Shown here: piece by piece, positions 5,445-30,455 of the stretch
Position numbering within the stretch: the first letter of the stretch is position 1
Layout: the number at the start of each line of letters is the position of its first letter
Assembly: GCA_016867815.1 (NCBI GenBank)
Contig: VGIR01000004.1
Coordinates: forward strand, 488 to 64,487
Reading direction: 5' to 3'
Length of the DNA stretch: 64,000 bases
Source: a candidate division WOR-3 bacterium
GTDB lineage: Bacteria; Hydrothermota; Tepidihabitantia; Tepidihabitantales; Tepidihabitantaceae
Program-made: the position numbers and the translations under genes
The notes under the pieces: generated by a model
What the model was told of the DNA's origin: nothing
Seen by the model: only the letters and a program-made list of their open reading frames with translations
Databases searched by the model: none

Positions 5445-5610
5445 ACATGTTCTTCCGAAGATCACACCGCATATTGTAGCAGGAAGGTAGAGCACTGTCA
5501 GGCGAAAACAGCCGCCGAGACTCCGCACTTGAGCCCACCACCAGGTCGGTGACCAGACCAGATCGGGAGTCAGAATCCTGCAGGTGGCCGAGCAACAGAA
5601 CGGACGCAGG

Positions 5611-7080
5611 CTAGTGCTGGAATGCGGACTGGAGGGCGGCGGCGATGATGGGAATCTCATCCTGGCGGAGGGTCCGGAAATCGAGCAGGTATTCGCCCTT
5701 CTCGACCCGGCCGAATACCGGTGGGCGATTGAGGCGCATCCGGCGGGCAAGCTCGTCCACGTGCACGGTCTTTGGCCGAACCGAAACCACGCGTGATTCG
5801 AGGCTCTCGGTGGCGAGCGACCCACCGCCGATTTCGGATAGCGCGGGCTTCACCTGGACTGCGGCCTTGTCCTTGAGCCTGGCCTGCACCTGACTCACAA
5901 GCGTCTCTGCCTCTTCCTGCATCTGCTGGGGAGTCTTGAGCAGGAGCTGGAACAGAGCGTGCTCCTTGACGACTCGCTCTTCGTCGAGGAAGAGCTCCAG
6001 GGTCCGTTCGAGCACGGCGTAGGTCAGCTTGCCGCAGCGCATGGCACGGGTGAGCGGGTGTTTCTTCAAGAGGTCGATGTACTTCTTCTTGCCGACGATG
6101 ATGCCTGCCTGCGACGCGGAAATCAGCTTGTCCCCGGAGAAGCAGATGACATCGGCTCCGGCTTTGACCGACTCCTGCACCAACGGTTCCTTGGGCAGGC
6201 CGTACTTCGAGAGGTCTATGAGCGCGCCGGAACCAAGGTCATCCACCACCAGCACCTTGGCCTCACGCGCCAGCCCGACCAGCTCTTCAAGTCCCACTTC
6301 CTTGGTGAACCCGGTAATCTTGTAGTTGGAAGTGTGGACCCGGAGCAGCAATGCCGTCTCGGACGTGATGGCATTCTTGTAGTCACGCAGGTGGGTACGG
6401 TTGGTTGTGCCTACCTCTACCATCTTGCATCCACTCTGCTGCATCACGTCGGGGATGCGGAATGCTCCGCCGATTTCGATGAGCTGGCCCCGCGAGACAA
6501 TCGCCTCCCTGCCCTTGGCCAGCCCCGAGAGGATGAGCAGCGTCGCGGCGCAGTTGTTGTTGACGACCATCGCCGCCTCGGCCCCGGTCAGCTCGCAGAG
6601 CAGCGGCTCGATGTGTCGATAGCGGCTGCCGCGCCTGCCAGTCTCAAGGTCGATTTCGAGGCTGGAGAAATGCTCGCTCACGTCGGCCAGCGCTTCCTGC
6701 GCGGCCTTGGACAACGGCGCGCGACCCAGCCCGGTATGCAGGATGACGCCGAGTCCGTTGATCGCCCGAGTCAGGGTCGGCTTGCGCTCGCGTTCAAGAC
6801 GCCGCTCTAGTTCGGTCTGGTCGTAGGCAACGCCCTCGCCAGCGTGAATCTTCTCCCGCAGTTCATCCAGGTAGACCCGTATCGTACGCACCGCCATTCG
6901 ACGGTGGACGTGAGACAGAACCGGCTTCAGTTCCTCACTCTCGAGCAGCTTGTCTACCGATGGCAGAGACCGAAAAGTGGCCCCGTGATCTAGTGGTCCA
7001 GTGTTCGAGTGTCCGGTCGGGAGTCCCGCACTTGACCTCTTGACCACTTGAGCACTAGACCGCTGCTGTTTCTTCTTCAC
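5611..7080 (-). CDS. selA: L-seryl-tRNA(Sec) selenium transferase (selenocysteine synthase).
   Basis: Full-length similarity to SelA (..FRSLPSVDKLL.., VVNNNCAATLLIL, VSRGQLIEIGGAFRIPDVM, HTSNY, FSGDKL...). GTG start at 7080 abuts the mcsB stop. The first ~35 codons are encoded by palindromic repeat element E1. Confidence 0.85.
   Translation of the reverse strand: MKKKQQRSSAQVVKRSSAGLPTGHSNTGPLDHGATFRSLPSVDKLLESEELKPVLSHVHRRMAVRTIRVYLDELREKIHAGEGVAYDQTELERRLERERKPTLTRAINGLGVILHTGLGRAPLSKAAQEALADVSEHFSSLEIDLETGRRGSRYRHIEPLLCELTGAEAAMVVNNNCAATLLILSGLAKGREAIVSRGQLIEIGGAFRIPDVMQQSGCKMVEVGTTNRTHLRDYKNAITSETALLLRVHTSNYKITGFTKEVGLEELVGLAREAKVLVVDDLGSGALIDLSKYGLPKEPLVQESVKAGADVICFSGDKLISASQAGIIVGKKKYIDLLKKHPLTRAMRCGKLTYAVLERTLELFLDEERVVKEHALFQLLLKTPQQMQEEAETLVSQVQARLKDKAAVQVKPALSEIGGGSLATESLESRVVSVRPKTVHVDELARRMRLNRPPVFGRVEKGEYLLDFRTLRQDEIPIIAAALQSAFQH
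6988..7062. repeat. Palindromic repeat element E1 (GTCNAGTG-type octamers x4, centre CGGGACTCCCG, inverted octamers x4), in-frame inside the selA 5' coding region.
   Basis: Read from the sequence; the plus and minus strands are near-identical. A homologous element sits in the lolD 5' region. Confidence 0.6.
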
Positions 7081-8120
7081 GGATGCACCAGCGTCTCTCG
7101 GACGAATGTGGCGCGGCGCTCGTCGCGTTCCGCCGCGGTCAGGTTCTCGCCCAGCAGCGCCTGCAGGTTCGCAGGACGGACAAGTATCATCAGCCGCGTC
7201 ACCTGCTCCAGGCTGATCTCGTTGACTATGCCAAGGGTGACTCCGAGCCTGAGGCCGGCAATCAGGTTTATCGCCTCGTCCGAAGAGAGGACGCGCGCGC
7301 CCCGCAACAGGCCAAGCGACCGGAAGACCTTGTCTTCGACCTCGACCCGCAGCTTCTTCATCAGGTACTCACGCGCCTTCCGCTCGTACAGAATCACCTG
7401 CCGACTGATGTCGGCGATCGTCTCGATGATCTCCCACTCGGTCTGGCCGACCGTCTTCTGGTTGGAAATCTGGAAGAAGTTGCCCTTGGTTTCAGTTCCC
7501 TCGCCGTACAGGCCGCGCACCGCGAGGCCGATATGGATGGCCCCGCGCAGCACCTTTTCGATCTCGCGGGTGATGACCAGCGCGGGGAGGTGCACGAGAA
7601 CCGAGGCCCGCATTCCGGTGCCGAGGTTGGTCGGGCACGCGGTCAGGAATCCGAACTCGGGCGAGAAGGCGTACTGAAGCTGGCTCTCCAGCTTCTCATC
7701 AAGAGCCGCCGCCGCAGTGAAGGCCTCGGGGAAATCGAGGCCGGATGCCATCACCTGGAACCGAAGGTGGTCTTCTTCGTTGATCATCAGGCTCGTGGCT
7801 TCATCGTTGCCGACGTAGAACCCGCGCTTTGCCTTGGAGGCGATGAAATCGGGCGAAGCGAGGTGACGCTCGATCAGGTACTGGCACTGCGGGTCGGCAA
7901 GCTGCTCGTTCTGGAGGAACTTGCCGTTCTCCAGGTAGCCGGTGTCGGTAAGCGCCCAGCGTACGACGTCAACGGTACGTTCGTGGTCGCGGGGCTCTGC
8001 CCGGTGGGTGAAGGGTACGTCGGCCAGGTTCCGCGCCAGCCGGACGCGGGTGGAGAGGACTACGTCAGCTTCCGGGCCGGAGGCCGCAAGCCACTTCCCG
8101 ACCGAACCGCCTGGACTCAT
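7077..8120 (-). CDS. mcsB: Protein arginine kinase (ATP:guanido phosphotransferase family).
   Basis: Phosphagen-kinase signature CPTNLGTGMRASV and an McsB-like N-terminus (VVLSTRVRLARNLADVPF). Confidence 0.8.
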   Translation of the reverse strand: MSPGGSVGKWLAASGPEADVVLSTRVRLARNLADVPFTHRAEPRDHERTVDVVRWALTDTGYLENGKFLQNEQLADPQCQYLIERHLASPDFIASKAKRGFYVGNDEATSLMINEEDHLRFQVMASGLDFPEAFTAAAALDEKLESQLQYAFSPEFGFLTACPTNLGTGMRASVLVHLPALVITREIEKVLRGAIHIGLAVRGLYGEGTETKGNFFQISNQKTVGQTEWEIIETIADISRQVILYERKAREYLMKKLRVEVEDKVFRSLGLLRGARVLSSDEAINLIAGLRLGVTLGIVNEISLEQVTRLMILVRPANLQALLGENLTAAERDERRATFVRETLVHP

Positions 8121-8133
8121 AGAAGCGGAGTAT

Positions 8134-8212
8134 CACCACCAAGGCACCAAGACACCAAGTCCGAGAACGGACTTCCTGTCCGGTCTGCTTTGTGCCTTTG
8201 TATCTTTGTGGC
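8134..8212. repeat. Palindromic repeat element E2 (ACCACCAAG GCACCAAG ACACCAAG, a 28-nt spacer, then CTTTGTGC CTTTGTAT CTTTGTGG) in the mcsA-mcsB intergenic region, ~22 nt upstream of the mcsB ATG.
   Basis: Read from the sequence. The arms differ from perfect complements by one systematic position per heptamer. Confidence 0.65.
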
Positions 8213-8220
8213 GGGCATCC

Positions 8221-8709
8221 TCACTCCCCTTCAGTTTTCCGGAGTTGGTCGCGCAGGGCCGCGGCCTTCTCGTAGTCTTCGTCCTGTATGGCGCCGGACA
8301 GCGCCTCGCGCAGCTTCTGGACGTTCATCTTCATCTGCGCCTGCTTGCGCCCTCCGCTCGCGGTCCTGCCGACGTGCTGCACCGCGTCGTGGATCCGTCT
8401 TATCAGCGGTACGAGCTGATCGTGAAATGACGTGTAACACTCGGCGCAGCCGAGCCGGGCCTGCCGTTTGAACTCGGCATAGGAGAGGCCGCAATTCGGG
8501 CAGATCAGCTTCGAATCGCCCTCATCGATGCGGTTCTTCAGCTCGGTGATGATCTCGGCTACGTTCGCCTTCAGCTTCTCGACTTCGGTGAACCCTCGCT
8601 GGCGGGCGCATTCGGGGCAGATGGTGATCTCCGTGACCTTGCCCTCCTTGTCGAGCTGGCTCACCTTCATTGTCGCCTCACCCTTGCCGCAGAGGTCACA
8701 TGCCTTCAT
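8221..8709 (-). CDS. mcsA: McsA-like activator of protein arginine kinase (zinc-ribbon plus UVR domain).
   Basis: MKACDLCGK...ICPECA...CPNCG...CAECY Cys pairs and a C-terminal UVR motif (EDYEKAAALRDQL). Start placed at the internal MKAC; the track ORF extends further upstream. Confidence 0.6.
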   Translation of the reverse strand: MKACDLCGKGEATMKVSQLDKEGKVTEITICPECARQRGFTEVEKLKANVAEIITELKNRIDEGDSKLICPNCGLSYAEFKRQARLGCAECYTSFHDQLVPLIRRIHDAVQHVGRTASGGRKQAQMKMNVQKLREALSGAIQDEDYEKAAALRDQLRKTEGE

Positions 8710-8732
8710 ATGGATGGAAAAACCGGAGGTCC

Positions 8733-8800
8733 GCCACAAGGGCACAAAGACCCGAAGAGGCCCCAGACTCTGGAACCTTCGGGACTTTGTGTTCTAGTGG
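8733..8800. repeat. Palindromic repeat element E3 (CACAAGG GCACAAAG ACCCGAAG, a 19-nt loop, then CTTCGGG ACTTTGTG TTCTAGTG) between lolD and mcsA.
   Basis: Near-perfect 15-bp inverted repeat. Belongs to the same heptamer family. Confidence 0.6.
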
Positions 8801-9573
8801 TTGGATTCCTCATCGAGCTTCCCTGCGGCGAGATGCAGCCGTCGCGTCGCCCGGTCCGCAACCGCCTGGTTGTGAGTCACGACCAGAATCGTCATCTTCC
8901 TTTCGTTGCTCAAGCGCACCATCAAGTCGACCAGGGCGGCCGCCGACGTCGTATCGAGGTTACCGGTCGGTTCGTCCGCCAGGATTACTGCCGGGTCGTT
9001 CACCAGCGCCCGGCCCATGGCGGCGCGCGCCTGCTCGCCGCCCGACAGCTCAGCCGGACGATGGGTCAGGCGGGAGGTGAACCCGATCTCCTCGAGTACT
9101 TTGTGCGCCCTGACCAACGCCTCGGCACGGGCAACACCCGCCACCAACAGCGGCATCGCCACATTCTCGAGAACCGTGAACTCGGAGAGCAGGTGGTGGA
9201 ACTGGAACACAAAGCCCAGTTTCCGGTTTCTCACCTCGTGCAGCTCCGACTCAGGGTAGCTGAAAACATCCAGTGAATCAAGCAGCACCCGGCCTCTGGT
9301 GGGCCGATCCAGAGCGCCGAGAACGTGCAGCAGGGTTGACTTGCCGGTGCCCGAAGGACCGAGAATGGCCACCAGGTCGCCGCGCTGCACTTCCAGATCG
9401 ACACCCCGCAGGATTTCAAGCCGCTCCGTCCCGGTTTCGAATACGCGCCAGACATCGGTCGCCTGAAGGACAGGCGTGTGGTCGAGTGGCGCCGTGGTCG
9501 AGTGGTCAAGTGCCGAACTCCCGGCCGAACACTGGTTCACTGGACCACTAGACCACTGCTTCTGCTCACTCAT
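8794..9573 (-). CDS. lolD: ABC transporter ATP-binding protein, LolD/FtsE/MacB family (lipoprotein release).
   Basis: Walker A GPSGTGKST, signature LSGGEQ, Walker B ILADEPTG. Its start overlaps the stop of the LolC/E-type permease by 8 nt. The N-terminal ~35 aa are encoded by repeat element E4, so the true start is uncertain. Confidence 0.75.
   Translation of the reverse strand: MSEQKQWSSGPVNQCSAGSSALDHSTTAPLDHTPVLQATDVWRVFETGTERLEILRGVDLEVQRGDLVAILGPSGTGKSTLLHVLGALDRPTRGRVLLDSLDVFSYPESELHEVRNRKLGFVFQFHHLLSEFTVLENVAMPLLVAGVARAEALVRAHKVLEEIGFTSRLTHRPAELSGGEQARAAMGRALVNDPAVILADEPTGNLDTTSAAALVDLMVRLSNERKMTILVVTHNQAVADRATRRLHLAAGKLDEESNH
9480..9560. repeat. Palindromic repeat element E4 (GTCTAGTG GTCCAGTG AACCAGTG, a centre, then CACTTGAC CACTCGAC CAC..CACTCGAC) inside the lolD 5' coding region.
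   Basis: Aligns with E1 in the same orientation and reading frame. Confidence 0.55.
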
Positions 9574-10789
9574 ACCTTATCGCCTCCAGCGGCACGAGCC
9601 TCGCTGCCTGCAGCGCCGGATAGATGGTGGCGGCAAAGGTAATAGCAATAGCCGAGATACAGACTAACGTCACATCCTGCACCATGACCTGCACCGGCAG
9701 GTTCTTGATGAAGTAGACGTCGCCGGGCAAAGAGACGAAGCGATACTTGTTCAGCAGCCAGCATGCGACCAGGCCGAAGACCGAACCCGTAACGGTACCG
9801 ATGATACCGATGAACCCGCCGGCCAGTATGAAGATGCGCGTCACGGTTGAGGACTTGGCCCCCATCGCTTTCAGGATACCTATCTCGCGGGTCTTGCGGA
9901 TGACCATCATCGTCAGCATGCCGATGATGTTGAACGCGGCAACCAGCACGATCAGCACCAGCACGATGAACGTAACGACCTTTTCCAGGCGCAAAGCGGT
10001 GAAGAGATTGCGGTTCTGCATTATCCAGTCGGTAGCGCGATACGGGTATCCAAGCTGCCGCGTGATGCGCCGCCCGATGCGGGCCGCAGCGTAGACGTCA
10101 CGCACGCGTAACTCGAACCCGGTAACCATTTTCTCCATGCCGAGGAACTGCTGGATTCCGGCCAGCGAAAGGTAGACGAAGCTCGAATTGTACTCGTACA
10201 TGCCGCAGTCGAAGATGCCGTTCACGACGAAGTACTTGGTGCGGGGCAGGAAGCCGAAGGCGGTCATCGTCCCGCCGAAGGGCGAAGCGAGGTTCAGCGA
10301 GTCACCGATGGAAAGCCCGAGTATACGCGCCAATTCGATGCCGATGACAACCCCGCTCGAGTCAAAGTCGAACTGCCCCTGGACAATGGTGCCGGATATG
10401 TCGGTGATATCGTCTTCGTACTCCGGATCGACGCCGCGAACCACGACACCCTCGACCCCGTTCTCGGTCCTTACCAACGTCTTGGCGTAGATGAACGGAG
10501 CGACCGACAGGACACCCGGAACCCGGGCAATCTCCTGCTGGAGCGAGTCGCCTCCGCCGGCCGGATACGGGATCGGCTCGAACGAATACTTGGCCACAAC
10601 CACATGCGGGGTAGCGCCGAGAATCCGATCCTTCAGCTCCTGGTGGAATCCGTTCTCGACCGAGAGAACGATGATGATTGCCGCAACGCCGACGAACACG
10701 CCACCCATCGCAATCGCGGTTATGCCGGAGAAAGTGCGCCTGCCCCTGCCGCGCAGGTACCGCCGCGCCATGAAGAGTTCGAATCTCAT
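9566..10789 (-). CDS. Lipoprotein-releasing system permease, LolC/LolE family (FtsX-like).
   Basis: N-terminus MRFELFMARRYLRGRGRR..., four TM segments and an FtsX-like C-terminus. Positioned in an operon with lolD. Confidence 0.8.
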   Translation of the reverse strand: MRFELFMARRYLRGRGRRTFSGITAIAMGGVFVGVAAIIIVLSVENGFHQELKDRILGATPHVVVAKYSFEPIPYPAGGGDSLQQEIARVPGVLSVAPFIYAKTLVRTENGVEGVVVRGVDPEYEDDITDISGTIVQGQFDFDSSGVVIGIELARILGLSIGDSLNLASPFGGTMTAFGFLPRTKYFVVNGIFDCGMYEYNSSFVYLSLAGIQQFLGMEKMVTGFELRVRDVYAAARIGRRITRQLGYPYRATDWIMQNRNLFTALRLEKVVTFIVLVLIVLVAAFNIIGMLTMMVIRKTREIGILKAMGAKSSTVTRIFILAGGFIGIIGTVTGSVFGLVACWLLNKYRFVSLPGDVYFIKNLPVQVMVQDVTLVCISAIAITFAATIYPALQAARLVPLEAIRYE

Positions 10790-10809
10790 GGTAGACGGAC
10801 CGGAGTCTT

Positions 10810-10888
10810 ACCACCAAGACACCAAGACACCAAGGTCGGAATCCGGCCGGCCGGAGAGATCTCTTTGTGCCTTTGTGCCTTTGTGGTG
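10810..10888. repeat. Palindromic repeat element E5 (ACCACCAAG ACACCAAG ACACCAAG, a 27-nt spacer, then CTCTTTGTG CCTTTGTG CCTTTGTGG) between lysS and the LolC/E gene, ~22 nt upstream of the permease ATG.
   Basis: Nearly identical to E2 in its arms. The distal context CTTGGTGGTRAKACTCCG..ATG is shared with mcsB. Confidence 0.65.
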
Positions 10889-10903
10889 AGAATCCTCACC
10901 GAA

Positions 10904-12451
10904 TCAGGATTCTTTCTGAGGCCGGAGTTGCGGAAAGAGAATCACGTCTCTGATGGTCGGTGAGTTCGTCAGCAGCATGGCAATCCGGTCAATCCCCAGT
11001 CCGAGGCCGCCGGTCGGCGGCATGCCGAACTCGAGCGCGGTGCAGTAGTCCTCGTCCACCGTCGCAAACTCCTCATTCAGAGCCACGCCCTCCTCGAACC
11101 GCTCCCGCTGCTCGGCCGGGTCGTTCAGCTCAGAGAACGCGTTGCCCAGTTCCATGCCGCATACCACCGGCTCGAACCGCTCGACCAGTTCCGGGTTGTC
11201 GCGGTGGCTCTTGGCCAGCGGCGTCGTCACCTTCGGATGGTCCATCACGAAGGTCGGGTCAATGATGTGGTCCTGTATCAGCTCGGAGAAGAGCTTGTCC
11301 AGCAGCTTGGCGCGGGAAATGTCCTCCGTGGTCTGAACGTTGAAGCGCGCCGCGACCTTCCTCAGCATCGGCATGGAGAGCTTCATCGGGTCCGTCTCAA
11401 TCCGCGCTGCCAGCGTGTCCACGAATTTCATCCGCTGCCAGGGTCTGCCGAAATCAACGATGTGGTCGCCGAACGGTAGCTCCGTCTTGCCGCAGACCTC
11501 CATGGCGAGGAACTTGAACAGCTCCTCGACCAGCGCGAGCACGTCATTGTAGTCGGCATAGGCCCAGTAGAGCTCCATCTGGGTGAACTCGGGATTGTGC
11601 GTCCGGTCCAGTCCCTCGTTGCGGAAATCCTTGCCGATTTCGAAGACCTTCTCCAACCCGCCGACGATCAGCCGCTTCAGGTACAGCTCGTCGGAAATCC
11701 GCATGAACATCTTCTGCTCGAGCACGTTGTAGAATGTCTCAAACGGACGGGCTGCGGCACCGCCGTAGATCGGCTGCAGAATCGGCGTCTCGACCTCGGC
11801 AAACCCGCGCTCGGAAAGGAACCGCCGCACGAGCCCGGTGATCTTGGTCCGATTCAGCAGCACCTGCCGCGACTCCTGATTGACAATAAGGTCAACGTAG
11901 CGCTGCCGATAGCGCATTTCGACATCTGTCAGACCGTGGAACTTCTCCGGCAGCGGATGTAGCGACTTTGTGAGGAGAACCAGTTCCTTCACGTTGACCG
12001 TCACCTCCCCGGTCTTGGTGCGGAACATCTCGCCCCGCGCTCCCACGAAGTCGCCTAGGTCGAGCAGACCAAGGTTCGCGAACGCCTGCTCGCCCAGGGT
12101 GTCCTTCCGCAGGTAGAGCTGCAGTCTCCCGGTTTCGTCCTGGATGTGGCCGAACTGGGTCTTCCCGTGCTCCCGCCGCGACATCAGCCTGCCCGCAACG
12201 CTCACTGCGAACAGGGGCGTGGGCAGAGGGGCTGTACCGGATTGCGGCGCTCCTGGCGCCGGAGACTGTCCCTGCCCGCTCAGATCCTCGAACTCCGCTA
12301 TCGCCTTCGCATTCGTGTGGGTCCGTTCCCACTTGTACGCGTAAGGATTGACACCGGCCTCGCGCAACTTCGCGAGTTTGCCGAGCCTGACTTCGCGGTC
12401 ATGGCCGCTGGTCTGAGTCGGTGGTTGTTGCTCCTGTGGGTTGTCGCTCAT
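10904..12451 (-). CDS. lysS: Lysine--tRNA ligase (class II).
   Basis: Class II aaRS motifs throughout (FRNEG, GGLGLGIDR...). About 505 aa with a typical OB-fold N-domain. Confidence 0.9.
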   Translation of the reverse strand: MSDNPQEQQPPTQTSGHDREVRLGKLAKLREAGVNPYAYKWERTHTNAKAIAEFEDLSGQGQSPAPGAPQSGTAPLPTPLFAVSVAGRLMSRREHGKTQFGHIQDETGRLQLYLRKDTLGEQAFANLGLLDLGDFVGARGEMFRTKTGEVTVNVKELVLLTKSLHPLPEKFHGLTDVEMRYRQRYVDLIVNQESRQVLLNRTKITGLVRRFLSERGFAEVETPILQPIYGGAAARPFETFYNVLEQKMFMRISDELYLKRLIVGGLEKVFEIGKDFRNEGLDRTHNPEFTQMELYWAYADYNDVLALVEELFKFLAMEVCGKTELPFGDHIVDFGRPWQRMKFVDTLAARIETDPMKLSMPMLRKVAARFNVQTTEDISRAKLLDKLFSELIQDHIIDPTFVMDHPKVTTPLAKSHRDNPELVERFEPVVCGMELGNAFSELNDPAEQRERFEEGVALNEEFATVDEDYCTALEFGMPPTGGLGLGIDRIAMLLTNSPTIRDVILFPQLRPQKES

Positions 12452-12524
12452 CGGGCAAGACTATATCCGTGTCAGAGGCGAAGTCAAACAGACGAAGAAG
12501 AGATCGACGCCGGGACAGGCACCT

Positions 12525-12552
12525 ACCACCAAGTCACAAAGACACAAAGATG
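12525..12552. repeat. Partial element E6 (CCACCAAG TCACAAAG ACACAAAG) upstream of lysS.
   Basis: Only one arm type is clearly present. Confidence 0.4.
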
Positions 12553-12588
12553 GATCTGGAAGCAGCCGCTACCGATGCACGCGCAAGG

Positions 12589-13407
12589 CTACTTCTTCTT
12601 GTGCCCGCTGGCAACGAGCCAGCTCCGCTCAACAACTCCCCAAACCGGATTGTCCGCATCGTGCTGCAGAAGCTCTCCATAGACACGCCAAGGCCGACTC
12701 CGACTCCAGAACTGCAGGCTCTGAACTATTCGGCGTTCGGCAGGCTGTGCACGCAGTCCAATCTCGCCCCCCGACTCAGTCCGGACCTGGTAGACAATGC
12801 CGCGCGGTCTGACGACGCGCCCTCCGACGGTGTCCCCTTCATCGAGCAGACGCTGGACCGATGCGGCGTCGGCGACGCCCGATATCTCGCGTTGCCACGC
12901 CGCGTAGTCCTCAAGCTTCCTGGGCTGGAACATAGTATCTACTTCCTCCGGCTTCAGCGGAAACCTGGGGAGGCACTGCTCGCCGCCAAACAGAGCGCCG
13001 ACCAAACCGGAGGCGCTCACCACGGTCTCCGGAGCGACATTGTCGCGTGGTCCGGAGAACAGAACCTGACGAACAACGAGCCAGTTGTCCGTACGAACGT
13101 ACCACACAAAGTCGTCCCTGGATGTCCCGTTTCGACGATCCTGGGCTTCGGCCCGCAGCACGTAGCAGTCCTGTTGTTCGACCGTCTCGACGCCGGCTAC
13201 ACAATATCGTTTGTAGCTGCAGCCGGAGTCAACCGCAGGATCGACTCTTGCCGGCTCCCAGGTCTTGACCACCCACCAGTCGCCCACTCGCCACCTGGGA
13301 GCAAAGTTCATCTTCCCGCCCGCGGTGAACTGCCGCGCGCATGCCGCGACAGCCAACGCGGTCAGGGCGACTCTCGTCCAACGCACGACACCAGTGTATA
13401 ACGACAC
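12589..13407 (-). CDS. Hypothetical secreted lipoprotein.
   Basis: Signal peptide with a lipobox (LAVAAC). No recognisable domain. Confidence 0.5.
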   Translation of the reverse strand: MSLYTGVVRWTRVALTALAVAACARQFTAGGKMNFAPRWRVGDWWVVKTWEPARVDPAVDSGCSYKRYCVAGVETVEQQDCYVLRAEAQDRRNGTSRDDFVWYVRTDNWLVVRQVLFSGPRDNVAPETVVSASGLVGALFGGEQCLPRFPLKPEEVDTMFQPRKLEDYAAWQREISGVADAASVQRLLDEGDTVGGRVVRPRGIVYQVRTESGGEIGLRAQPAERRIVQSLQFWSRSRPWRVYGELLQHDADNPVWGVVERSWLVASGHKKK

Positions 13408-13508
13408 AGACTGCTGTCAAACCACTTGTCGAGGGACAATCCCTAGCCGCCCGAGGAGGCTGGCCGCGAAGTTAGGCGCATGGCGAAGTCGGGATGATGA
13501 GACATGTT

Positions 13509-13760
13509 CGTATCACTATGCCGAGGGCGTTTTCGGTCCTATGTGCCTGAGGATTAGGGCGTTAGGCGGCATCGAGCCGAAATGACCCCCCCCGCCCCGG
13601 GGACTGCTCGGGGGATAGCCAGCCATGTCGTTTGTATCGCTGTATCGGACATCGTTCGGCAGACAGTCTCGGACACGGTCTGGGAGAGTCCTTGGTCCGT
13701 TGTCCCGGAGGCAGTGCGGCAAGCTGCGTGCATCGTTGCTTCGTGCGTCGTTTGGGGAAA
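13509..13760 (+). ncRNA. Conserved noncoding element, copy 1 (candidate sRNA, 5' leader or cis-regulatory element; not identified in any known family).
   Basis: About 230 nt that align at ~70% identity with 30006-30236 (shared blocks CCTATGTG..TGAGG..TTAGGC..CGAAATGACCCC, a CATCGTT/TCGNTGTA repeat block, CAGACAGTC, GAGAGTCCTTGGTCC). Lies in a 680-bp ORF-free divergent intergenic region. Strand not established. Confidence 0.3.
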
Positions 13761-13969
13761 AGCAGAGATAGTATGCAGCAGGCAGTAGACAGGACTGCCG
13801 GGCACGCAGACGGGCACGTCGTTCTGCACGTTGCTTCCGCCGCAATCCGGAACGCAGCCTGCGAGGCGGTTCGCGGGGTTGCGCCCGGAGTCATGTCCTT
13901 TTCCGTGACCCGAGTCCCACGATGAGAGGTCTTCCCGAATCCAGCCTGCGGCGTGAGTCCATCACCGGC

Positions 13970-13997
13970 TTGACATGGCGTACCGGGGCGATAGCAT
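13970..13997 (+). promoter_or_regulatory. Putative sigma70-type promoter (TTGACA-N16-TAGCAT) for the CARDB cargo gene.
   Basis: Read directly from the sequence, ~125 nt upstream of the ATG at 14121. Strong SD AAGGAGGT 7 nt before the ATG. Confidence 0.35.
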
Positions 13998-14120
13998 GAC
14001 CCGTTCACGGGCTGCGGTCCTTTGCAGCCGTGAGCGGCATACGCCGGCAGGCCGCGTGGCAAGGCTGTCTGCGGTGGCGACCGGCGGGTGCGCAACGCCA
14101 GTCAGCACGAAGGAGGTCGG

Positions 14121-16343
14121 ATGATTCAGGCAGTTCGCAAGGCAGTGACCGTGACAATGCTAGTCCTGCTGTTCGTTGCCGCTGGAGCATCGGCAGCGAC
14201 GTCGGAAGCGTCGGCGATCGAGAAGGCCAAGGCGGCAGCATACGCGGCCGCGTTCGACGCGCCCGGGGCTGACCCGCTCGAGTTGAGCGGCGGGCCGGAC
14301 GACTACGGGTACATCTTCAAAGACGAGACCGACAGCGGCGGTCCGGCCTACGACTGGATTGACACCGTCGGTGCAACCAGCCTGGATATCACGGGCGACG
14401 ATACATTCACTGTGGTCGCGCTGCCTTTCACCTTCTCGTTCTACGGCGCGGACTTTGACTACTGCCACCCCTCCACCAATGGCCAGATGGGGCTCGGCAG
14501 CGGCATCCGGGCCTACGCCAACTCCGAGCTTCCGACCACCAATCTCCCCGCCAGTCACCTGTGCCCCTACTGGGACGACCTGTACGTGGACACCAGCTCC
14601 AAGGTCCTCTACAAGACCGTGGGCACTGCCCCGAACCGGCAGTTCGCCGTCATCTGGGACAGCGTCCGCACGCTCAGCAGCAGCTATCGTCTCGTGTTCG
14701 AAGCCATCCTGGGTGAGTCAGACAACAGCATCACCTACCAGTACCGCTACCTGGACACGAACGCGCAGGGCCAGTCCGCCACAATCGGCGAACAGCAGGC
14801 CCAGACCGGCAACCGCTACCTGCAGTATTCGTACAACACGGCGTCGCTGACCGCCGGGCGCGCCATCAAGTTCTGGCGTCCGGAGATGACGGCCGACGTC
14901 GGCACTCACCGGATTGTCGCGCCCAACGGCGTCCACCTGATGGACACGATTCAGCCGGAGGCCGTCATCAAGAACTACGGGACTGCTGCCCAATCCAACT
15001 TCGGGGTCAGGCTCGACATCGGCACCGGCTATACCAGCACGGTGAACGTACCCGGTCCGGTTGCGCCCGGAGATACCGTCGTCGTCAACACGTTCACCCC
15101 CTGGGTCCCGACTGCCATGGGCCCGTACGCGGTCGCCTGCTCGACCCAACTCAGCGGCGACCTGTTCGAGAGGAACGACAAGGCGACCGCGAGCGCGATG
15201 ATTGTGAGCCTGGTCGAGCACTTTGAGCCGACCAACGGCGGCTACGTGCCGACTCCGGACTCGGGCCACTGGGCGTGGCGCGAACCGGCGTACCCGCGGC
15301 CGGCGCCGCCGTCGTCACCCAATGTGTGGACCATCCCGGACTCCGGTGCCTATCAGACATACGAAAGCAGCTACGTGGCATCCTGCAAGTACGTCGCCAC
15401 CCTGGACTCCCCGCAGGTCATGTTCGACCACCGGTTGTACGTCGAGCCGAACTTCGACGGCGGCAACGTATCCTACTCAACCGACCATGGCTCGACTTGG
15501 ACTGTCATCTTCCCGGACGGCACCCGGCCCTACGACTCTCTCCGTTCCGGGCAGTGGGGCTACACCGGCACCGTCCCCTGGGAACTGGCCACGTTCCGTG
15601 TCCCGGTCCTGCAGGACAGCGGGTTCAAGCTGCGCTGGAAGTTCATGACTGACCTTTCGGTCCAATACCAGGGCGGCTGGATGATTGACGACTTCGCCGG
15701 CATCGGCATCGCCAGGCTCGCGGCCGACGTCGGCGTCGTACAGACACTCGCGCCGGCCGAGTCGGTCTACTTCGGTGACACGATCGCCCCGCGTGCCGTA
15801 GTCCAGAACTTCGGTAGCGCGGAGCAGACGTTCGTGGTTCGGTTCTCGGTCGGCGACGGCTATGGGGACTCGGACTCGATGACGCTTGCTCCCGGCCTGA
15901 CGGACACGGTTGAGTTCGCGGACTGGACTCCGGAATCGCTCGGGACCTTCAGCGTCACCTGCTCGACCGAACTGGCCGGTGATATGGACCAGGCCAATGA
16001 CGCAGTCCATGGCTCGGCTACGGTCATGCCGTTCGTTGGGGTGGCCGAACAACCCCGCCTTGCCCGCGCCTTCTCACTGGACAATGCGCTGCCGAACCCG
16101 TTCACCGGCAGCACAACCATCCGTTTCGGCGTCACGCGCCGGGAGCAGGTGTGTGTGAGCGTCTACTCCGCCGCCGGTACGCTCGTTCGGACGCTCTGCA
16201 ACTCCGACCTGGTTCCGGGATACCACTCGCTTGCCTGGGACGGCCGGGACGCACGGGGGCACGCGGCCGGAGCCGGCGTGTACCTGATGCGGATGAAGAC
16301 CGACGTCTTCACCGCCACGCGCAAACTGGTCCTGCAGCGCTAG
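14121..16343 (+). CDS. Secreted CARDB-domain protein with a T9SS C-terminal sorting domain.
   Basis: Signal peptide MIQAVRKAVTVTMLVLLFVAAGASA. CARDB-like modules (..VIKNYGTAAQSNFGV..). C-terminus NPFTGSTTIRFGV...GVYLMRMKTDVFTATRKLVLQR matches the Por_Secre_tail/T9SS CTD pattern. Confidence 0.8.
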   Translation: MIQAVRKAVTVTMLVLLFVAAGASAATSEASAIEKAKAAAYAAAFDAPGADPLELSGGPDDYGYIFKDETDSGGPAYDWIDTVGATSLDITGDDTFTVVALPFTFSFYGADFDYCHPSTNGQMGLGSGIRAYANSELPTTNLPASHLCPYWDDLYVDTSSKVLYKTVGTAPNRQFAVIWDSVRTLSSSYRLVFEAILGESDNSITYQYRYLDTNAQGQSATIGEQQAQTGNRYLQYSYNTASLTAGRAIKFWRPEMTADVGTHRIVAPNGVHLMDTIQPEAVIKNYGTAAQSNFGVRLDIGTGYTSTVNVPGPVAPGDTVVVNTFTPWVPTAMGPYAVACSTQLSGDLFERNDKATASAMIVSLVEHFEPTNGGYVPTPDSGHWAWREPAYPRPAPPSSPNVWTIPDSGAYQTYESSYVASCKYVATLDSPQVMFDHRLYVEPNFDGGNVSYSTDHGSTWTVIFPDGTRPYDSLRSGQWGYTGTVPWELATFRVPVLQDSGFKLRWKFMTDLSVQYQGGWMIDDFAGIGIARLAADVGVVQTLAPAESVYFGDTIAPRAVVQNFGSAEQTFVVRFSVGDGYGDSDSMTLAPGLTDTVEFADWTPESLGTFSVTCSTELAGDMDQANDAVHGSATVMPFVGVAEQPRLARAFSLDNALPNPFTGSTTIRFGVTRREQVCVSVYSAAGTLVRTLCNSDLVPGYHSLAWDGRDARGHAAGAGVYLMRMKTDVFTATRKLVLQR

Positions 16344-16371
16344 TCAGCATCCGACAGCAGCAGTCGGCAGG

Positions 16372-16389
16372 GGCGGGCGCAAGCCCGCC
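16372..16389 (+). terminator. GC-rich GNRA-tetraloop hairpin (GGCGGGC GCAA GCCCGCC) immediately after the cargo-gene stop. Likely an intrinsic terminator without a U-tract.
   Basis: Perfect 7-bp stem with a GCAA loop. A near-identical hairpin follows the 27532-29889 gene. Confidence 0.4.
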
Positions 16390-16432
16390 TCTTGCTGGAC
16401 AGGTCGCGGGCTGTAGCCTACACTCTACAGAG

Positions 16433-16951
16433 ATGGGTCGCATCCTCTGTATAGACTACGGCGAGCGGCATACGGGCGTTGCGGTCTCTGACCCGACGCG
16501 AACCATCGCGCAAGCTTTGCCGACCATCCATCACTCGAGCAAACGCGAGCTGCTGGAAGCGCTTAGGCGGCTCATTGCCGAGCAGGAGGTGACTGAGGTC
16601 GTCATCGGCCTGCCGGTGGCTCAATCCGGCAAGCCGAGCCGTCGGTCCGAGCAGGTGCGGAGTTTCGCCGGGCAACTGAGGAAGGCAACCGGCCTGTCTG
16701 TGGCGACGTTCGATGAACGCTTCTCGACCGCCCGAGCGACCGAGGTGCTGGAGGAGATGTCGGGCGGCCGCGACCTCGCGCCCGGCAAGCGCGCAGCCAC
16801 CGGCCGGAACCGGAAGCGCCGCGAAGCCGTGGACCGGATAGCCGCGACCATCATCCTTGAAGACTACCTGGCTGAGATGGGGGACCGCACGAAGAACCCA
16901 GAATCCAGAGTCCAGAATCCAGAATCCAGAAGTACCGGAGCCGGGGCGTGA
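16433..16951 (+). CDS. ruvX: Holliday-junction resolvase-like protein YqgF/RuvX.
   Basis: MGRILCIDYGERHTGVAVSD... RNase-H-like YqgF motif. The C-terminal tail KNPESRVQNPESRST is encoded by an 11-bp tandem repeat (CAGAATCCAGA x3). Confidence 0.75.
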   Translation: MGRILCIDYGERHTGVAVSDPTRTIAQALPTIHHSSKRELLEALRRLIAEQEVTEVVIGLPVAQSGKPSRRSEQVRSFAGQLRKATGLSVATFDERFSTARATEVLEEMSGGRDLAPGKRAATGRNRKRREAVDRIAATIILEDYLAEMGDRTKNPESRVQNPESRSTGAGA

Positions 16952-17955
16952 AACCACCAGGATACCGGTGCACCAAGGTCCTGGTCCTGACCTCTTTGTG
17001 TCTCTGTGCCTTTATGGTGGGTCACCTCTCGTGTTCGAGCCGCGTGCCGTCGAACGGCCGGAAGGTCGAGGTGGTGGTGCGGCCCGGCCAGAGCGCCACG
17101 TCCATCGCCGACACCCTGGTTGTGAAGCAGGTCATCGGCTCCAAACCGCTGTTCCTGCTATACGCCTGGTACTACAACTACAATGCCCGCCTGCGCGCCG
17201 GCCGCTACCAGCTTTCCATCGGCACCGGCGAGCGGCGCGCGCTCCGGCTGCTGGCCGGCGAAGAGGCCGCGGTGACGATGGTCACGATTCCCGAGGGCTA
17301 CACCATGAACGAAATCGCAGCGGTGCTGGCGGAACGCGGGGTCTGCCCGGCCGACAGCTTCCTGAGCGCGTGCATGGATACGAGCCTGCTCCGGCAGTCC
17401 GGCGTGAGGGCGGCGACCGCCGAGGGCTACCTGTTTCCGGAGACCTATGAATTCCTCAGCGGCTCCGCGCCAGCCGATGTCGCGCGCAGGCTGATCCGCC
17501 AGTTCTTCTCGGTGTTCGCCGAACTCCACGACTCCTCACGCCTCCCTCCTGCCTCTTTCCTCACTCCCTCGCAGGTCGTGATACTCGCGTCCATCGTCGA
17601 GCGCGAAGCCAGGGTGCCGGAGGAGTTCCCGCGCATTGCCGGAGTATTCGCTAATCGCCTGCGCCGGCGCCTGCCGCTGCAGTCTTGTGCCACCGTCGAG
17701 TACCTGCTGCCGCAGCGCAAGGGACGGCTGTCGGTAGAGGACACGAAGATAGCGTCCCCGTACAATACCTATCTCCACGCCGGCCTGCCGCCCGGGCCGA
17801 TCTGCAATCCGGGCCGCCGCGCGCTGGCCGCCGCGCTCCATCCCGAGCGGAACGACTATCTCTTCTTTGTCGCCCGCGGCGACGGCACCCACCTCTTCTC
17901 CCGCACCGCGGCCGAGCACGCTGCGGCCTGCCGCCGCGTCCGCGACGGCGGCTAG
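16948..17955 (+). CDS. mltG: Endolytic murein transglycosylase MltG (YceG family).
   Basis: YceG-like domain (..VVVRPGQSATSIADTL..., NTYLHAGLPPGPICNPG). ATGA overlap with the ruvX stop. The N-terminal TM anchor is encoded within repeat element E7. Confidence 0.8.
   Translation: MKPPGYRCTKVLVLTSLCLCAFMVGHLSCSSRVPSNGRKVEVVVRPGQSATSIADTLVVKQVIGSKPLFLLYAWYYNYNARLRAGRYQLSIGTGERRALRLLAGEEAAVTMVTIPEGYTMNEIAAVLAERGVCPADSFLSACMDTSLLRQSGVRAATAEGYLFPETYEFLSGSAPADVARRLIRQFFSVFAELHDSSRLPPASFLTPSQVVILASIVEREARVPEEFPRIAGVFANRLRRRLPLQSCATVEYLLPQRKGRLSVEDTKIASPYNTYLHAGLPPGPICNPGRRALAAALHPERNDYLFFVARGDGTHLFSRTAAEHAAACRRVRDGG
16954..17020. repeat. Palindromic repeat element E7 (CACCAGG..CACCAAGG, a spacer, then CTCTTTGTG TCTCTGTG CCTTTATGG) at the ruvX/mltG junction. 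It encodes the MltG N-terminal hydrophobic segment and supplies an in-frame ATG.
   Basis: The right arm matches E5 at 27 of 31 nt. Confidence 0.5.
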
Positions 17956-27531: not shown

Positions 27532-29889
27532 ATGAACCGAACCGCAGTTCTCGCCGTCCTTTGCCTGCTCGTTGCGTACGCCGGCGCCCAGTTCCGGGAA
27601 ACCACTGTGCTGCTGCCCGATACGCTCGGTGGCGTCGGATACCCGGGTGCGATGGTCTACAACAGCGGCGCCAACCGCATCTACGCCGGCGGGACCGCGA
27701 GCGACGCGGTAGCCGTCATCGACGCGGCGACCGGCACGCGTGTCGCCCGGATCTCCACCCCACCCGGCGAGGGAATCTATGCGCTATGCTACAATCCGGC
27801 CAACAACAAGCTCTATGCCTCAACCAGCGTCAGCTCCGCCAAGCTGCTGGTCATCGACGGCGCGACGCACGCAGTGCTGGCAACGGTGCCTGTAGGCGGC
27901 TACGTCAACGCAATTCTAGTCAACCCGGCGACCGACCGAGTCTACTGCGTGAACTCGGGCGTGGACTCGGTTACAGTCATCGACGGAACCACCAACGGCG
28001 TCGTCACGACGGTGAAGGTAGGTGACTATCCGTACGCGCTCTGCGTCAACGCGACCAACAACAAGATCTACGTCGCAGGGAACTCCGACAGCTCAGTCAC
28101 CGTCATCGACGGCGCGACCAACAACGTCGTCGCCACTGTCCGGGTCGGCCGCGGCCCGATCGCGCTCTGCTGGAACTCGGGCGAGAATAAGGCGTACAGC
28201 GCCAACAGCACCGATGGCAGCGTCACCGTCATCGATGGCGCAACCAACAACGTCGTCGCCACTGTGGCGACCGGGACTCTAACCCGCGACGTCTGCTACA
28301 ACCCGACCAACAGCAAGGTATACGCTGCGGCAAATGGCACCAGCAAGCTCGTGGTCATAAACGGAGTGACCAACGCCATCGACACGTTCTTCACGGTCGG
28401 CCAAGCCTACGCGGTCGGATACAATCCAACCAGCAACAAGGCCTATTGCACCTGGCAGTACAGCCGTCGGGTCACCATCATTGACGGCACGGCCGATACC
28501 GTGCTCGGCACGGCCGACGTCGGCTACACGCCGGGGCCGGTCATCCACGCCGCGACGGGCAACCGGGTTTTCGTCTGCAACCGCGACGACAACAACCTGA
28601 GCATCGTGGATGGCGTGTCCGATTCGACCGTCGCGACCGCGTATGTCGGCTTCTACCCGTACGGCGCCTGCTATGATTCGCGGCAGAACCGGCTCTACGT
28701 GCCCAACGCGCATGGGCCGACGGTCGCGGTCGTGGACTGCGCGACGAACACCGTCGACGCCGAGGTGGCGGTCGGTCAGGATGTGAGTTCGGCCTGCTTC
28801 GACAGCGTGGACAACAAGATCTTCTGCGCCGTCTCCGGTTCGCAGCGGGTTGCGGTCATTAACGCGGCGACCGGTGCAGTAGTCGACTCGGTGCCGGTCG
28901 GCGGCAGGCCCTTTGGAATCCTGTACAATCAGGCGTCGGGCAAGGTCTACTGCTCCGACATCTATACCGACTCGCTGTTCGTCATCAACGCGGCGACCAA
29001 CGCGGTTCTGGCGCGAATGAGCCCCGGCAACAACCCTGTTGCACTTTGCCTCAGCACTGCCGGTAACAAGGTCTACGTCGCCACCCGTGACGACGACCAG
29101 GTCAGGGTTATCGATGGCGTCACGAATCTCGTTCTTGACTCGATACCGGTCGGCGACGGCCCCTACTTCCTCTGCTACAACGGCAATGACGACAAGGTGT
29201 ACGTCGCGAACTACGGCGACAGCACCGTATCGGTCATCGATTGCGCGGGCGACTCCGTCGTTGCCACCGTCAAGGTCGGCCGCTGGCCGTTCCGGTTGGC
29301 ATACAACCCCGACCACAACAAGGTCTACGTCGTCACCGGCTCTGGGAGCAGTGTCGCTGTGCTCGACGGCGCCGGCGACAGCATCATCACCAAGGTCAGC
29401 GTCGGCCAGAGTCCGCTAAGCGTCATCTACAGTGAACGCACCGGGCTTGCCTACGTCGGCGTCAGTGCGAGGAACATCGTGCTCATAGACGGTGCCACCA
29501 ACGAAGTGAGGAAGAACGTACCTTCCGGCGTCCGGGTCGAGGTCTTCGCCCTGAACCCGTCCGGCGGGCGGGTCTACGCCATCAGCCCGTACGGCTCGGA
29601 CATCACAGTTGTCGTTGACTCTCTGACCGGCATCGCGGAAGCGATGAGTGATGAACGAGCAACGATGAAAGCCGGTCCCACCATCGTCCGCGGCGTCTTC
29701 CTACTGGATGGGGACTGTCCCCGCACAGGGACCATCCCCAAAGCCGTCCTACTGGATGCATGCGGCCGCAGGGCAATTGATCTCAAGCCCGGCGCGAATG
29801 ACGTGCGTCGCCTCGCGCCCGGGGTATACTTCGTCCGGCGCCTGGCCGGCGACTACCGGGCTACCGAGAAGGTGGTCTTGCAGAAGTAG
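27532..29889 (+). CDS. YVTN-family beta-propeller repeat protein (~16 repeats) with a T9SS C-terminal sorting domain.
   Basis: Canonical 40-aa YVTN repeats (..NKIYVAN.GS.SVSVID..TN.VVATV.VG..P.GIA). Signal peptide. C-terminus GVYFVRRLAGDYRATEKVVLQK. Confidence 0.85.
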   Translation: MNRTAVLAVLCLLVAYAGAQFRETTVLLPDTLGGVGYPGAMVYNSGANRIYAGGTASDAVAVIDAATGTRVARISTPPGEGIYALCYNPANNKLYASTSVSSAKLLVIDGATHAVLATVPVGGYVNAILVNPATDRVYCVNSGVDSVTVIDGTTNGVVTTVKVGDYPYALCVNATNNKIYVAGNSDSSVTVIDGATNNVVATVRVGRGPIALCWNSGENKAYSANSTDGSVTVIDGATNNVVATVATGTLTRDVCYNPTNSKVYAAANGTSKLVVINGVTNAIDTFFTVGQAYAVGYNPTSNKAYCTWQYSRRVTIIDGTADTVLGTADVGYTPGPVIHAATGNRVFVCNRDDNNLSIVDGVSDSTVATAYVGFYPYGACYDSRQNRLYVPNAHGPTVAVVDCATNTVDAEVAVGQDVSSACFDSVDNKIFCAVSGSQRVAVINAATGAVVDSVPVGGRPFGILYNQASGKVYCSDIYTDSLFVINAATNAVLARMSPGNNPVALCLSTAGNKVYVATRDDDQVRVIDGVTNLVLDSIPVGDGPYFLCYNGNDDKVYVANYGDSTVSVIDCAGDSVVATVKVGRWPFRLAYNPDHNKVYVVTGSGSSVAVLDGAGDSIITKVSVGQSPLSVIYSERTGLAYVGVSARNIVLIDGATNEVRKNVPSGVRVEVFALNPSGGRVYAISPYGSDITVVVDSLTGIAEAMSDERATMKAGPTIVRGVFLLDGDCPRTGTIPKAVLLDACGRRAIDLKPGANDVRRLAPGVYFVRRLAGDYRATEKVVLQK

Positions 29890-29918
29890 ACGGCAGACAG
29901 TAGACAGCATACAGGGCA

Positions 29919-29940
29919 GGGGCGGGCGAAAGCCCGCCCC
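29919..29940 (+). terminator. GC-rich GNRA-tetraloop hairpin (GGGGCGGGC GAAA GCCCGCCCC) after the YVTN gene. A conserved terminator-like element.
   Basis: Perfect 9-bp stem. The flanking GACAGCA..CAGGG context is shared with the hairpin at 16372. Confidence 0.45.
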
Positions 29941-30005
29941 TGCGTCCTTCGATCTACTCGCCGTGACGATGTCCTAGGCTCGCTGCCGAGCGCGATTCTA
30001 CGACG

Positions 30006-30432: not shown

Positions 30433-30455
30433 CACCACCAAGGCACCAAGGCACT
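30433..30455. repeat. Partial element E8 (CACCACCAAG GCACCAAG GCAC) in the 1-kb intergenic gap, followed by a 9-bp tandem repeat (GAATGACGA x3, ~30465-30500).
   Basis: Read from the sequence. Confidence 0.4.

Follow-up and report, generated by a model that had tools for sequence, protein, structure and literature searches.

A stretch of 64,000 nt from a candidate division WOR-3 bacterium (assembly GCA_016867815.1, contig VGIR01000004.1, positions 488 to 64,487; hereafter the window, numbered from its own first letter) contains an operon of six head-to-tail genes on the minus strand (5611-12451), namely lysS, lolCE, lolD, mcsA, mcsB and selA, and all the junctions of this operon are occupied by palindromic elements whose arms are made of short tandem units. 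Our comparison with six related genomes revealed that these palindromes, E1 to E5, are insertions into an ancestrally compact operon that were later turned over in sequence, because the operon of distant relatives is compact while that of closer ones has, at the same junctions, elements built alike from other units. We regard it as fairly probable that they are gene-less insertion cassettes riding in transcription units, akin to the intervening sequences (IVSs) of 23S rRNA and to the short tandemly repeated repetitive (STRR) sequences of cyanobacteria. The locus is also present in several metagenome assemblies from Lake Tanganyika.

The six genes are lysS (10904-12451), lolCE (9566-10789), lolD (8794-9573), mcsA (8221-8745), mcsB (7077-8120) and selA (5611-7080), and the promoter-like site preceding lysS, a sigma-70-like match TTGACT-16-TATAGT on the same strand (12487-12460; 10/12 match, 9 nt upstream of the lysS start), suggests that lysS to selA form one transcription unit. 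A first-pass annotation of the window had reported a family of short palindromes at gene junctions with at least eight copies, E1 to E8, and the family itself is borne out: Tandem Repeats Finder and an inverted-repeat search gave five complete palindromes, E1 to E5, with 3-4 tandem 8-nt units per arm, together with several solo arms, and the window has 13 matches to CACMAAGNCACMAAG when up to one mismatch is allowed, where dinucleotide shuffles lead one to expect 0.03. As for the remaining copies, E6 and E8 are single arms, and E7 is weak and degenerate. Two unit types are found among the complete palindromes, all on the minus strand: three copies of CACNAAGN on the 5' arm of either strand in E2, E3 and E5, and three to four copies of GTGGTCNA in E1 and E4.

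The cleanest palindrome of the first type, hereafter the CACNAAG type, is E5 (10809-10888), which lies in the spacer from the stop of lysS (10904) to the start of lolCE (10789), with arms of three exact CACCAAGA units (10812-10834) and three exact CTTTGTGC units (10863-10885), a 28-nt centre, and an outer inverted repeat, GGAGTCTTAC / GTGAGAATCC, that extends the structure. E2 (8136-8211), in the spacer from the stop of mcsA (8221) to the start of mcsB (8120), consists of C plus CACCAAG x3 (8137-8159) and CTTTGTG x3 plus G (8188-8210) around a centre of also 28 nt, which contains a small hairpin of its own. Both had been placed about 22 nt upstream of start codons; this is right for E5 (22 nt), and the distance of E2 is 16 nt. 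The conserved context said to precede these starts is present as GGTRAKACTCC, which is the outer part of the palindrome itself. E3 (8734-8800), a degenerate member at the lolD/mcsA boundary, has arms at 8734-8757 and 8777-8800 that are 83% complementary around a 19-nt centre, and its outer unit contains the lolD stop codon. Of the second type, E1 (6976-7064) at the mcsB/selA boundary has arms at 6976-7011 and 7029-7064 with units GTGGTCNA / TNGACCAC, 72% complementary around 17 nt, and E4 (9478-9559) has arms at 9478-9512 and 9530-9559.

The arms of E1 to E5 can form a hairpin stem of about 24 bp that has 1x1 mismatches at regular intervals; when both strands were folded, the minimum free energies were -33 to -48 kcal/mol with z between -2.2 and -5.8, the strongest being E3 (z = -4.7 and -5.8), and the solo arm E6 gave no hairpin (z = -0.9). 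The systematic mismatch pointed out earlier in E2 and E5 is real, as C at the fourth unit position of one arm is opposed by T in the other, which makes the arms CACCAAG and CACAAAG when each is read on its own strand; moreover the spacer base is non-complementary too, with A opposite C.

The insertion history can be followed in the six relatives, whose McsB identities to the window are 92% (L131), 89% (L132), 84% (L133), 75% (L134), 70% (L135) and 63% (L136). In L135 and L136 the operon genes abut or overlap, the N-termini of LolD and SelA are short, and the elements are absent. In L134 long inserts are seen at two junctions only, a gene-bearing cassette at lysS|lolCE and, at mcsB|selA, a 150-nt spacer known by its length only. 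In the window, L131, L132 and L133, nearly every operon junction has an element of one architecture, i.e. 3-4 tandem units, a centre and 3-4 inverted units, and the units at one and the same junction differ between relatives, for example CACAAAGG, GGGGTCGA, GGATTCAA, CCAGAATC and GGGACAGA. Thus the E2 site has an orthologous element in L131, another unit type in L132 and L133, and none in L134 to L136. The possibility that the elements are ordinary conserved coding sequence was looked at through these orthologous loci, and presence/absence polymorphism was found instead.

Traces of the insertion are visible at the borders. Alignment of the lolD|mcsA junction opposes an insert of about 126 nt in three genomes to four empty sites, and the ancestral start/stop overlap GATGAAG is present at either end of the insert, the left copy having lost its ATG and the right one being the mcsA start. 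A like pattern is seen at mcsA|mcsB, where ATGA(A/G) is duplicated on both sides of the insert; at lysS|lolCE no duplicated flank is visible. Judged from the aligned sequences, these duplicated motifs look like target-site duplications.

At the two junctions that leave no intergenic space, lolCE|lolD and mcsB|selA, the overlapping start codon has been kept, and at most a few codons separate it from the in-frame element: E4 stands within the 5' end of lolD behind the ATG that overlaps the lolCE stop, and E1 within the 5' end of selA behind the GTG that overlaps the mcsB stop. The earlier description of in-frame copies inside 5' coding regions is therefore right for E1 and E4; its third example, E7, overlaps the signal-peptide part of mltG and is a doubtful member of the family. 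Through the elements the reading frame is open in all 8 lolD and selA genes of the four genomes (window, L131, L132, L133), while the remaining two frames are closed in 15 of the 16 cases, hence these copies are evidently constrained to be translatable. This has a practical side, since gene callers disagree on the selA and lolD starts owing to the inserts. Automatic calling gave a SelA of 428 aa for L001 and L131, in which the Se-cys_synth_N domain is cut off, and one of 506-522 aa for L132 and L133, beginning at the GTG that overlaps the mcsB stop. The disagreement (window 6897-7080) is due to the inserted element, and the conserved open frame supports the long form of SelA.

Gene-bearing cassettes and the CACNAAG type across phyla

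At the lysS|lolCE junction, which is the E5 site in the window, L133 and L134 carry arms of the form (CCAGAATC)n ... (GATTCTGG)n that enclose a gene for a protein of 112-119 aa belonging to PF05635/TIGR02436 (L133 6917-7276; L134 5158-5496). This family is the '23S rRNA intervening sequence protein', a four-helix bundle resembling bAvd. A second such gene in L133 (18712-19092) lies between (GGGGTTA)n and (TAACCCC)n, and the gene-less elements of L133 have units similar to those of its cassettes. As a side observation, the four-helix-bundle cassettes of L133 (18560-19240), L137, L161 and L165 use GGGGTTA, GGGACTA or GGGGATA as arm units, which are telomere-like and G-rich on the 5' arm, where they might form G-quadruplexes.

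The association extends beyond the WOR-3 relatives. We took 33 loci with relatives of the four-helix-bundle protein from unrelated metagenomes, 32 of which have usable flanks; in 27 of the 32, the two flanks score higher as inverted repeats than the 95th percentile of mismatched-locus controls, and in 14 higher than the 99th, although this control is inflated by unit types common to several loci. Most of these arms are visible tandem 7-8-mers of very diverse sequence, and in 24 of 26 cases the cargo gene points the same way as the gene upstream of it.

A second cargo family is the GxxExxY protein with a PD-(D/E)XK fold (TIGR04256/PF13366). In one locus (L044) such a gene is enclosed by CACNAAG arms, and in two more (L101, L063) GxxExxY genes adjoin the arms. 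In cultured isolates, GxxExxY genes sit between co-oriented housekeeping genes, for example between radA and the gene of an FAD-dependent protein in Bacteroides finegoldii, between ade and a mannose-1-phosphate guanylyltransferase gene in Bernardetia, and between fabD and fabG in Sphingomonas, with arms that use the related units CACAGAG(GA), CGCAGAGGA (CGCAGAG type) or CGCGAAG. A search of IMG/VR with the GxxExxY protein (tblastn) gave no match. Two further loci may be mentioned here: L035 has a nested element (5540-5850) with outer arms (CCGGGGAG)n / (CTCCCCGG)n around inner CACCAAGG / CTTGGTG arms, and L172 (760-900) has a gene-less CGCAGAGGA hairpin directly downstream of a GxxExxY (pseudo)gene, so that cassettes seem to insert into or beside one another.

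The CACNAAG type itself is far from being unique to the window; such uniqueness had been named as what would refute the family. A scan for CACMAAGNCACMAAGNCACMAAG (CACMAAG x3) over one genome per GTDB species found it in at least 120 species genomes, where about 2 are expected at uniform composition (1.2e12 positions / 5.5e11). All cross-phylum counts given from here on are counts among the matches listed. These include Chloroflexota, Planctomycetota, Acidobacteriota, Bacteroidota, Verrucomicrobiota, Alpha- and Zetaproteobacteria, Desulfobacterota, Gemmatimonadota, Omnitrophota, Cyanobacteriota, Spirochaetota and two archaeal metagenome-assembled genomes, with Desulfonema magnum and Caenispirillum bisanense as cultured carriers, and 86 further CACNAAG stretches are found in IMG/VR contigs. 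The elements have the layout of E5 with a variable centre, and a flank consensus TTMAC precedes the first CAC on both sides. The order of the arms is CACNAAG-then-CTTNGTG in 72 elements and the reverse in 9. They are mostly intergenic and close to stop codons, often 5-30 nt past them, in 12 convergent, 20 tandem and 5 divergent gene contexts. For example in one Chloroflexia locus (L062 4766-5176), four CACNAAG-type hairpins stand in tandem with 109-nt spacing between convergent genes.

Around the 120 loci listed, neither a linked transposase nor a recurrent neighbour family was seen except for a few GxxExxY genes; the largest cluster of neighbour proteins covers 13 loci, with members of 230-740 aa, several of them kilobases away from the arms. 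Rfam gave no match at E<=10 in the window, and in 20 related loci no match at gathering score except one tRNA. In the searchable full-text literature, octamer arrays, CACNAAG and CTTNGTG led to no relevant paper, and GxxExxY, TIGR04256, TIGR02436 and S23p to incidental mentions only, besides the paper on the Coxiella IVS. A blastn search of plasmids with a model element gave no match, possibly through the low-complexity filter.

Origin and function of the elements

Taking the observed anatomy, insertion polarity, frame conservation, cargo association and wide distribution as given, we infer the RNase III cleavage, the mode of spread and any host benefit as follows. The cassettes would form a class defined by inverted arms of 3-4 tandem 7-8-nt units around either a short centre or a small promoter-less gene, whose product would be a four-helix-bundle or a GxxExxY protein. 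They would have entered the compact lysS-selA operon at gene boundaries: at two junctions the start/stop overlap would have been duplicated, leaving the element intergenic, and at two others the element would have landed just behind a start codon, giving a translated in-frame N-terminal extension. After entry, their sequences would have turned over. Transcribed with the operon, the arms would fold into the mismatched hairpin described above, which by analogy with the S23p-type IVS of 23S rRNA is most likely cut by RNase III, so that the insert would be excised from, or cut within, the polycistronic RNA and the cistrons would be separated unharmed, much as rRNA takes no harm from such cuts. Elements of this kind would be tolerated by the host, as selfish or neutral passengers.

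Several observations weigh against such a scenario. All window copies are gene-less, with no cargo gene found within any of them, and across the CACNAAG loci a cargo gene is present at only 3 of about 200 and a four-helix-bundle gene at none; the link between the CACNAAG type and the cassettes thus rests on the shared architecture and a few cases. The folding of E1, E2 and E4 is modest, with z of -2.2 to -2.6 on the strand with the weaker result. The sense strand has no overall advantage in stability, being more stable in 6 and less stable in 11 of the cross-phylum elements, and more stable in 10 and less in 8 of the WOR-3 elements, so that selection at the RNA level is not demonstrated. Moreover solo arms are common in the CACNAAG set and its variable positions show no compensatory pairing, hence a pure stem-only model fits poorly, and a hairpin cut by RNase III offers no explanation for the conservation of unit and flank across phyla, nor does local slippage. 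Finally, the duplicated start/stop motifs could equally be the result of selection for keeping both the stop and the start.

Part of this would be explained if the arms were arrays of binding sites for a sequence-specific protein, be it an operator, a nucleoid site or the target of a GxxExxY nuclease acting in trans as a RAYT (REP-associated tyrosine transposase) does on REP (repetitive extragenic palindromic) sequences, with the hairpin being secondary. In fact the non-complementarity seen in E2 and E5 is general in the 107 CACNAAG elements listed: CAC and AAG are fixed, and the fourth and eighth positions are complementary between the arms in only 38% and 36%, about the level given by base composition. 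That CAC-N-AAG and its flank are kept across phyla, in carriers with a G+C content of 34 to 73%, without pairing constraint at the variable positions indicates a sequence-reading partner, for which the enclosed PD-(D/E)XK protein is the obvious candidate; the parallel would be REP and RAYT, as the GxxExxY gene of L044 lies between CACNAAG arms just as a RAYT gene lies between REPs. The frequent solo arms and the usual number of three units per arm (82/107) point in the same direction. However, the units differ freely at one junction in sister genomes, the elements stand past stop codons and inside an operon instead of at promoters, divergent regions are the rarest context, no recurrent protein family adjoins the arms and cargo is as scarce as said above, and a 50-kb stretch around the GxxExxY cassette of Bernardetia has essentially no dispersed gene-less copies. 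We therefore consider the binding array an improbable account of the elements as a whole. The operator-like role suggested at first is not supported, considering that the elements lie within the operon downstream of its likely promoter, that their units are swapped in sister genomes, and that no regulator is linked to them.

Less likely again is that the hairpins are intercistronic regulators of benefit to the host, such as mRNA stabilisers, processing sites or devices of translational coupling that adjust the operon's unrelated genes in their relative expression, kept by selection for structure. It is true that the junctions with elements are the same in four related genomes in spite of the replaced sequence. 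It is also true that in E2 and E5 the helices have 7 bp on the sense strand and 3 bp on the antisense strand, since only the former lets the spacer bases form a G-U pair, and that the sense strand is the better-folding one in five of six independent intergenic WOR-3 element types; for the STRR hairpins, too, a part in stabilisation or coupling has been put forward (PMC2670836). On the other hand, the operons of L135 and L136 work with no elements and that of L134 with few, the sense-strand advantage vanishes over all elements, and two of the five elements are intragenic, a position in which a stable hairpin would impede translation. Nor are the elements intrinsic terminators, for they have no U tract and no terminator-like minus-strand site is found at E1 to E5.

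The least probable of these three accounts, in our judgement, is a local origin, in which slippage expands a 7-8-nt unit, template switching copies it inverted, and the palindromes are mutational by-products at tolerant sites. Such a process would suit the great diversity of unit sequences, the units that grade into each other in one arm (from GGATTCAA to GGGGTCCA in L132), the lack of a transposase at the loci listed, the solo arrays that lengthen reading frames such as that of RuvX, and the closer likeness of adjacent units within an arm (about 51% agreement) than of paired units across arms (38%); also in Coxiella the copy number of the heptamers varies among strains (PMC4990558). It leaves unexplained the identical unit and flank consensus in many phyla, the bias in arm order, the presence between the arms of small co-oriented genes from just two families and the duplicated junction motifs, and among ten near-identical population copies of the locus no variation in unit number was found, the single difference being one substitution in the centre of E5. 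Resemblances to CtsR, HAIR, CIRCE, DnaA-box, parS and IHF sites, considered in view of the mcsA/mcsB neighbours and of look-alike words such as GGTCAAG and TTAACCACA, were rejected since the period is 8 and not that at which such sites are spaced, the units change between sister genomes and there is no tie to particular genes.

Returning to the insertion cassettes, a wider extension may be formulated, which we hold to be rather unlikely as a whole: the CACNAAG palindromes, with their CACAGAG and CGCAGAG relatives, and the GxxExxY protein would be a cross-phylum mobile system of the REP/RAYT kind, with the four-helix-bundle gene and its heptamer arms as a parallel system; the units would be read by the small protein, whose action in trans would copy the gene-less palindromes or maintain them at gene boundaries, and the rRNA IVS would be a special case of operon-riding hairpin cassettes in most environmental bacterial phyla. 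If the cassette reading is true, the cyanobacterial STRR sequences, the 23S rRNA IVSs and the common genes annotated as 'four helix bundle protein' or 'GxxExxY protein' would, instead of being treated apart, unite as one class of transcript-borne hairpin cassettes, which remodel operons by pulling overlapping genes apart and which give essential proteins (LolD, SelA, RuvX) translated low-complexity extensions at the N- or C-terminus. The motif TTMAC-[CACNAAGR]x3 ... [YCTTNGTG]x3-GTKAA is common to many phyla and has no counterpart in Rfam or the searchable literature, and its carriers in culture include Caenispirillum bisanense, Desulfonema magnum and Bacteroides finegoldii.

Solo arrays and other features of the window

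Besides the complete palindromes, the window contains several arrays without an inverted partner. E6 (12527-12550, minus strand; CACCAAGT CACAAAGA CACAAAG) precedes the -35 box of the lysS promoter-like site by about 40 nt. E7 (16956-17016, plus strand), a weak CACNAAG-like palindrome in the 5' end of mltG (folding z = -1.1), is downgraded because its 'arm' encodes the hydrophobic core of the MltG signal peptide. Adjoining it on the same strand is a solo array of 5.6 AGAATCC units (16893-16931) with a period of 7 instead of the 8 of E1 to E5; it forms no palindrome, and as a C-terminal extension of RuvX it adds about 20 residues relative to the RuvX of L136. The same AGAATCC is the unit in the arms of the four-helix-bundle cassette of L133.

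A run of solo arrays on the plus strand (30380-30498) comprises AATGCAG-like units (30380-30418), E8 with CACCAAGG x2.4 (30436-30454) and GAATGAC x4.9 (30465-30498), all without inverted partners and within a non-coding stretch of about 900 nt. Over 29880-30600 this stretch contains tandem arrays of GCAGACA/GTAGACA, AATGCAG, CACCAAGG, GAATGAC, CGCCGATGCA and CAGAATC-like units, on one strand throughout and none with an inverted partner, and it gives the impression of half elements piled up as in a graveyard.

Other repeated features of the window are given here for completeness. Two similar non-coding segments of about 250 nt (13460-13715 and 29957-30201; local alignment score 131) have in common the blocks CCTATGTG..TGAGG..TTAGGC..GAAATGACCCC and ATCGTTGTATCG.ACATCGTTC..CAGACAGTC and give no Rfam match; one is upstream of a gene for a secreted CARDB/FlgD_ig protein, the other downstream of a 785-aa open reading frame (ORF), and they may represent a regulatory region present twice or else a non-coding RNA. 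Moreover, nearly identical G+C-rich hairpins (GGCAGGGGCGGGCGNAAGCCCGCC; 16371-16395 and 29915-29945), each after a short CAGCA/GACAG repeat, stand 3' of two stop codons, one ending the CARDB/FlgD_ig gene (14088-16343) and the other the ORF 27532-29889, and are probably common 3'-end structures. The latter ORF has a 126-nt x1.8 repeat at 28035-28265, and an ORF of 2867 aa on the minus strand (55385-63988), in which a 312-nt unit is repeated 19 times (74% matches, 56674-62607), probably encodes a giant repetitive protein.

Comparison with known systems

The first-pass annotation could assign the elements to no known class. In fact their architecture is that of the cyanobacterial STRR hairpins and of the S23p-type IVS, and a gene of the S23p family is found at the E5 junction in relatives. 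In the 23S rRNA IVS of Coxiella, three GACAGAT heptamers in tandem stand before the S23p ORF, strains differ in how many heptamers they have, and excision by RNase III, which cleaves at the first of the repeats, was shown experimentally (PMC4990558). The S23p-type IVSs, known in Coxiella and Leptospira, have a stem of inverted flanks around a small promoter-less PF05635/TIGR02436 gene in the orientation of the host transcript, with tandem heptamers at the base of the stem, and both the stem and the tandem units are present in the window elements; ORF-less versions of about 100 nt exist in Salmonella, the distribution is sporadic with signs of horizontal transfer, and at the E5 junction L133 and L134 carry just such a gene between tandem-unit arms. 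The window elements differ in that they stand between protein-coding genes or in first codons and not in rRNA helices 9, 25 and 45, that all of them are without a gene, and that some are translated.

As for the STRR sequences, 7-bp tandem units form hairpins between hupS and hupL, and it has been proposed that they stabilise the transcript or couple translation (PMC2670836). Arrays of tandem units close to 7 bp that can fold into hairpins, placed in spacers between cistrons, are found here as well. However, the hosts of STRR sequences are filamentous cyanobacteria instead of WOR-3, the units here are mostly of 8 nt (CACNAAGR, GTGGTCNA), from which the described STRR units presumably differ in sequence, and one unit type here, CACNAAG, is common to many phyla. 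No report that links STRR sequences to small cargo genes was found in the searchable literature.

The likeness to REP and BIME (bacterial interspersed mosaic element) sequences that had been proposed holds for the position and the behaviour, since these, like the REPINs, are short extragenic imperfect palindromes, at times numerous, after stop codons and between cistrons, which is true for E2, E3 and E5; and the proposed mobilising gene of the REP/RAYT system is flanked by repeats like the GxxExxY gene in L044. It fails for the sequence, for the arms here are internally tandem octamers, and neither a REP-like sequence nor a RAYT (Y1-transposase) gene was seen; moreover REP sequences are lineage-specific while CACNAAG is found across phyla, and E1 and E4 are intragenic. 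Miniature inverted-repeat transposable elements share the small size, the terminal inverted repeats, the lack of genes, the presence/absence polymorphism and possibly the duplicated target, but the elements described here have no known parent insertion sequence with a transposase, their arms consist of tandem sub-repeats, and their full-length forms carry four-helix-bundle or PD-(D/E)XK genes and no recognised transposase. To sum up, the elements are best grouped with the IVS and STRR sequences, as a further form that is gene-less and octamer-based, lies in mRNA and not in rRNA, is sometimes translated, and has one unit type in use in many phyla.

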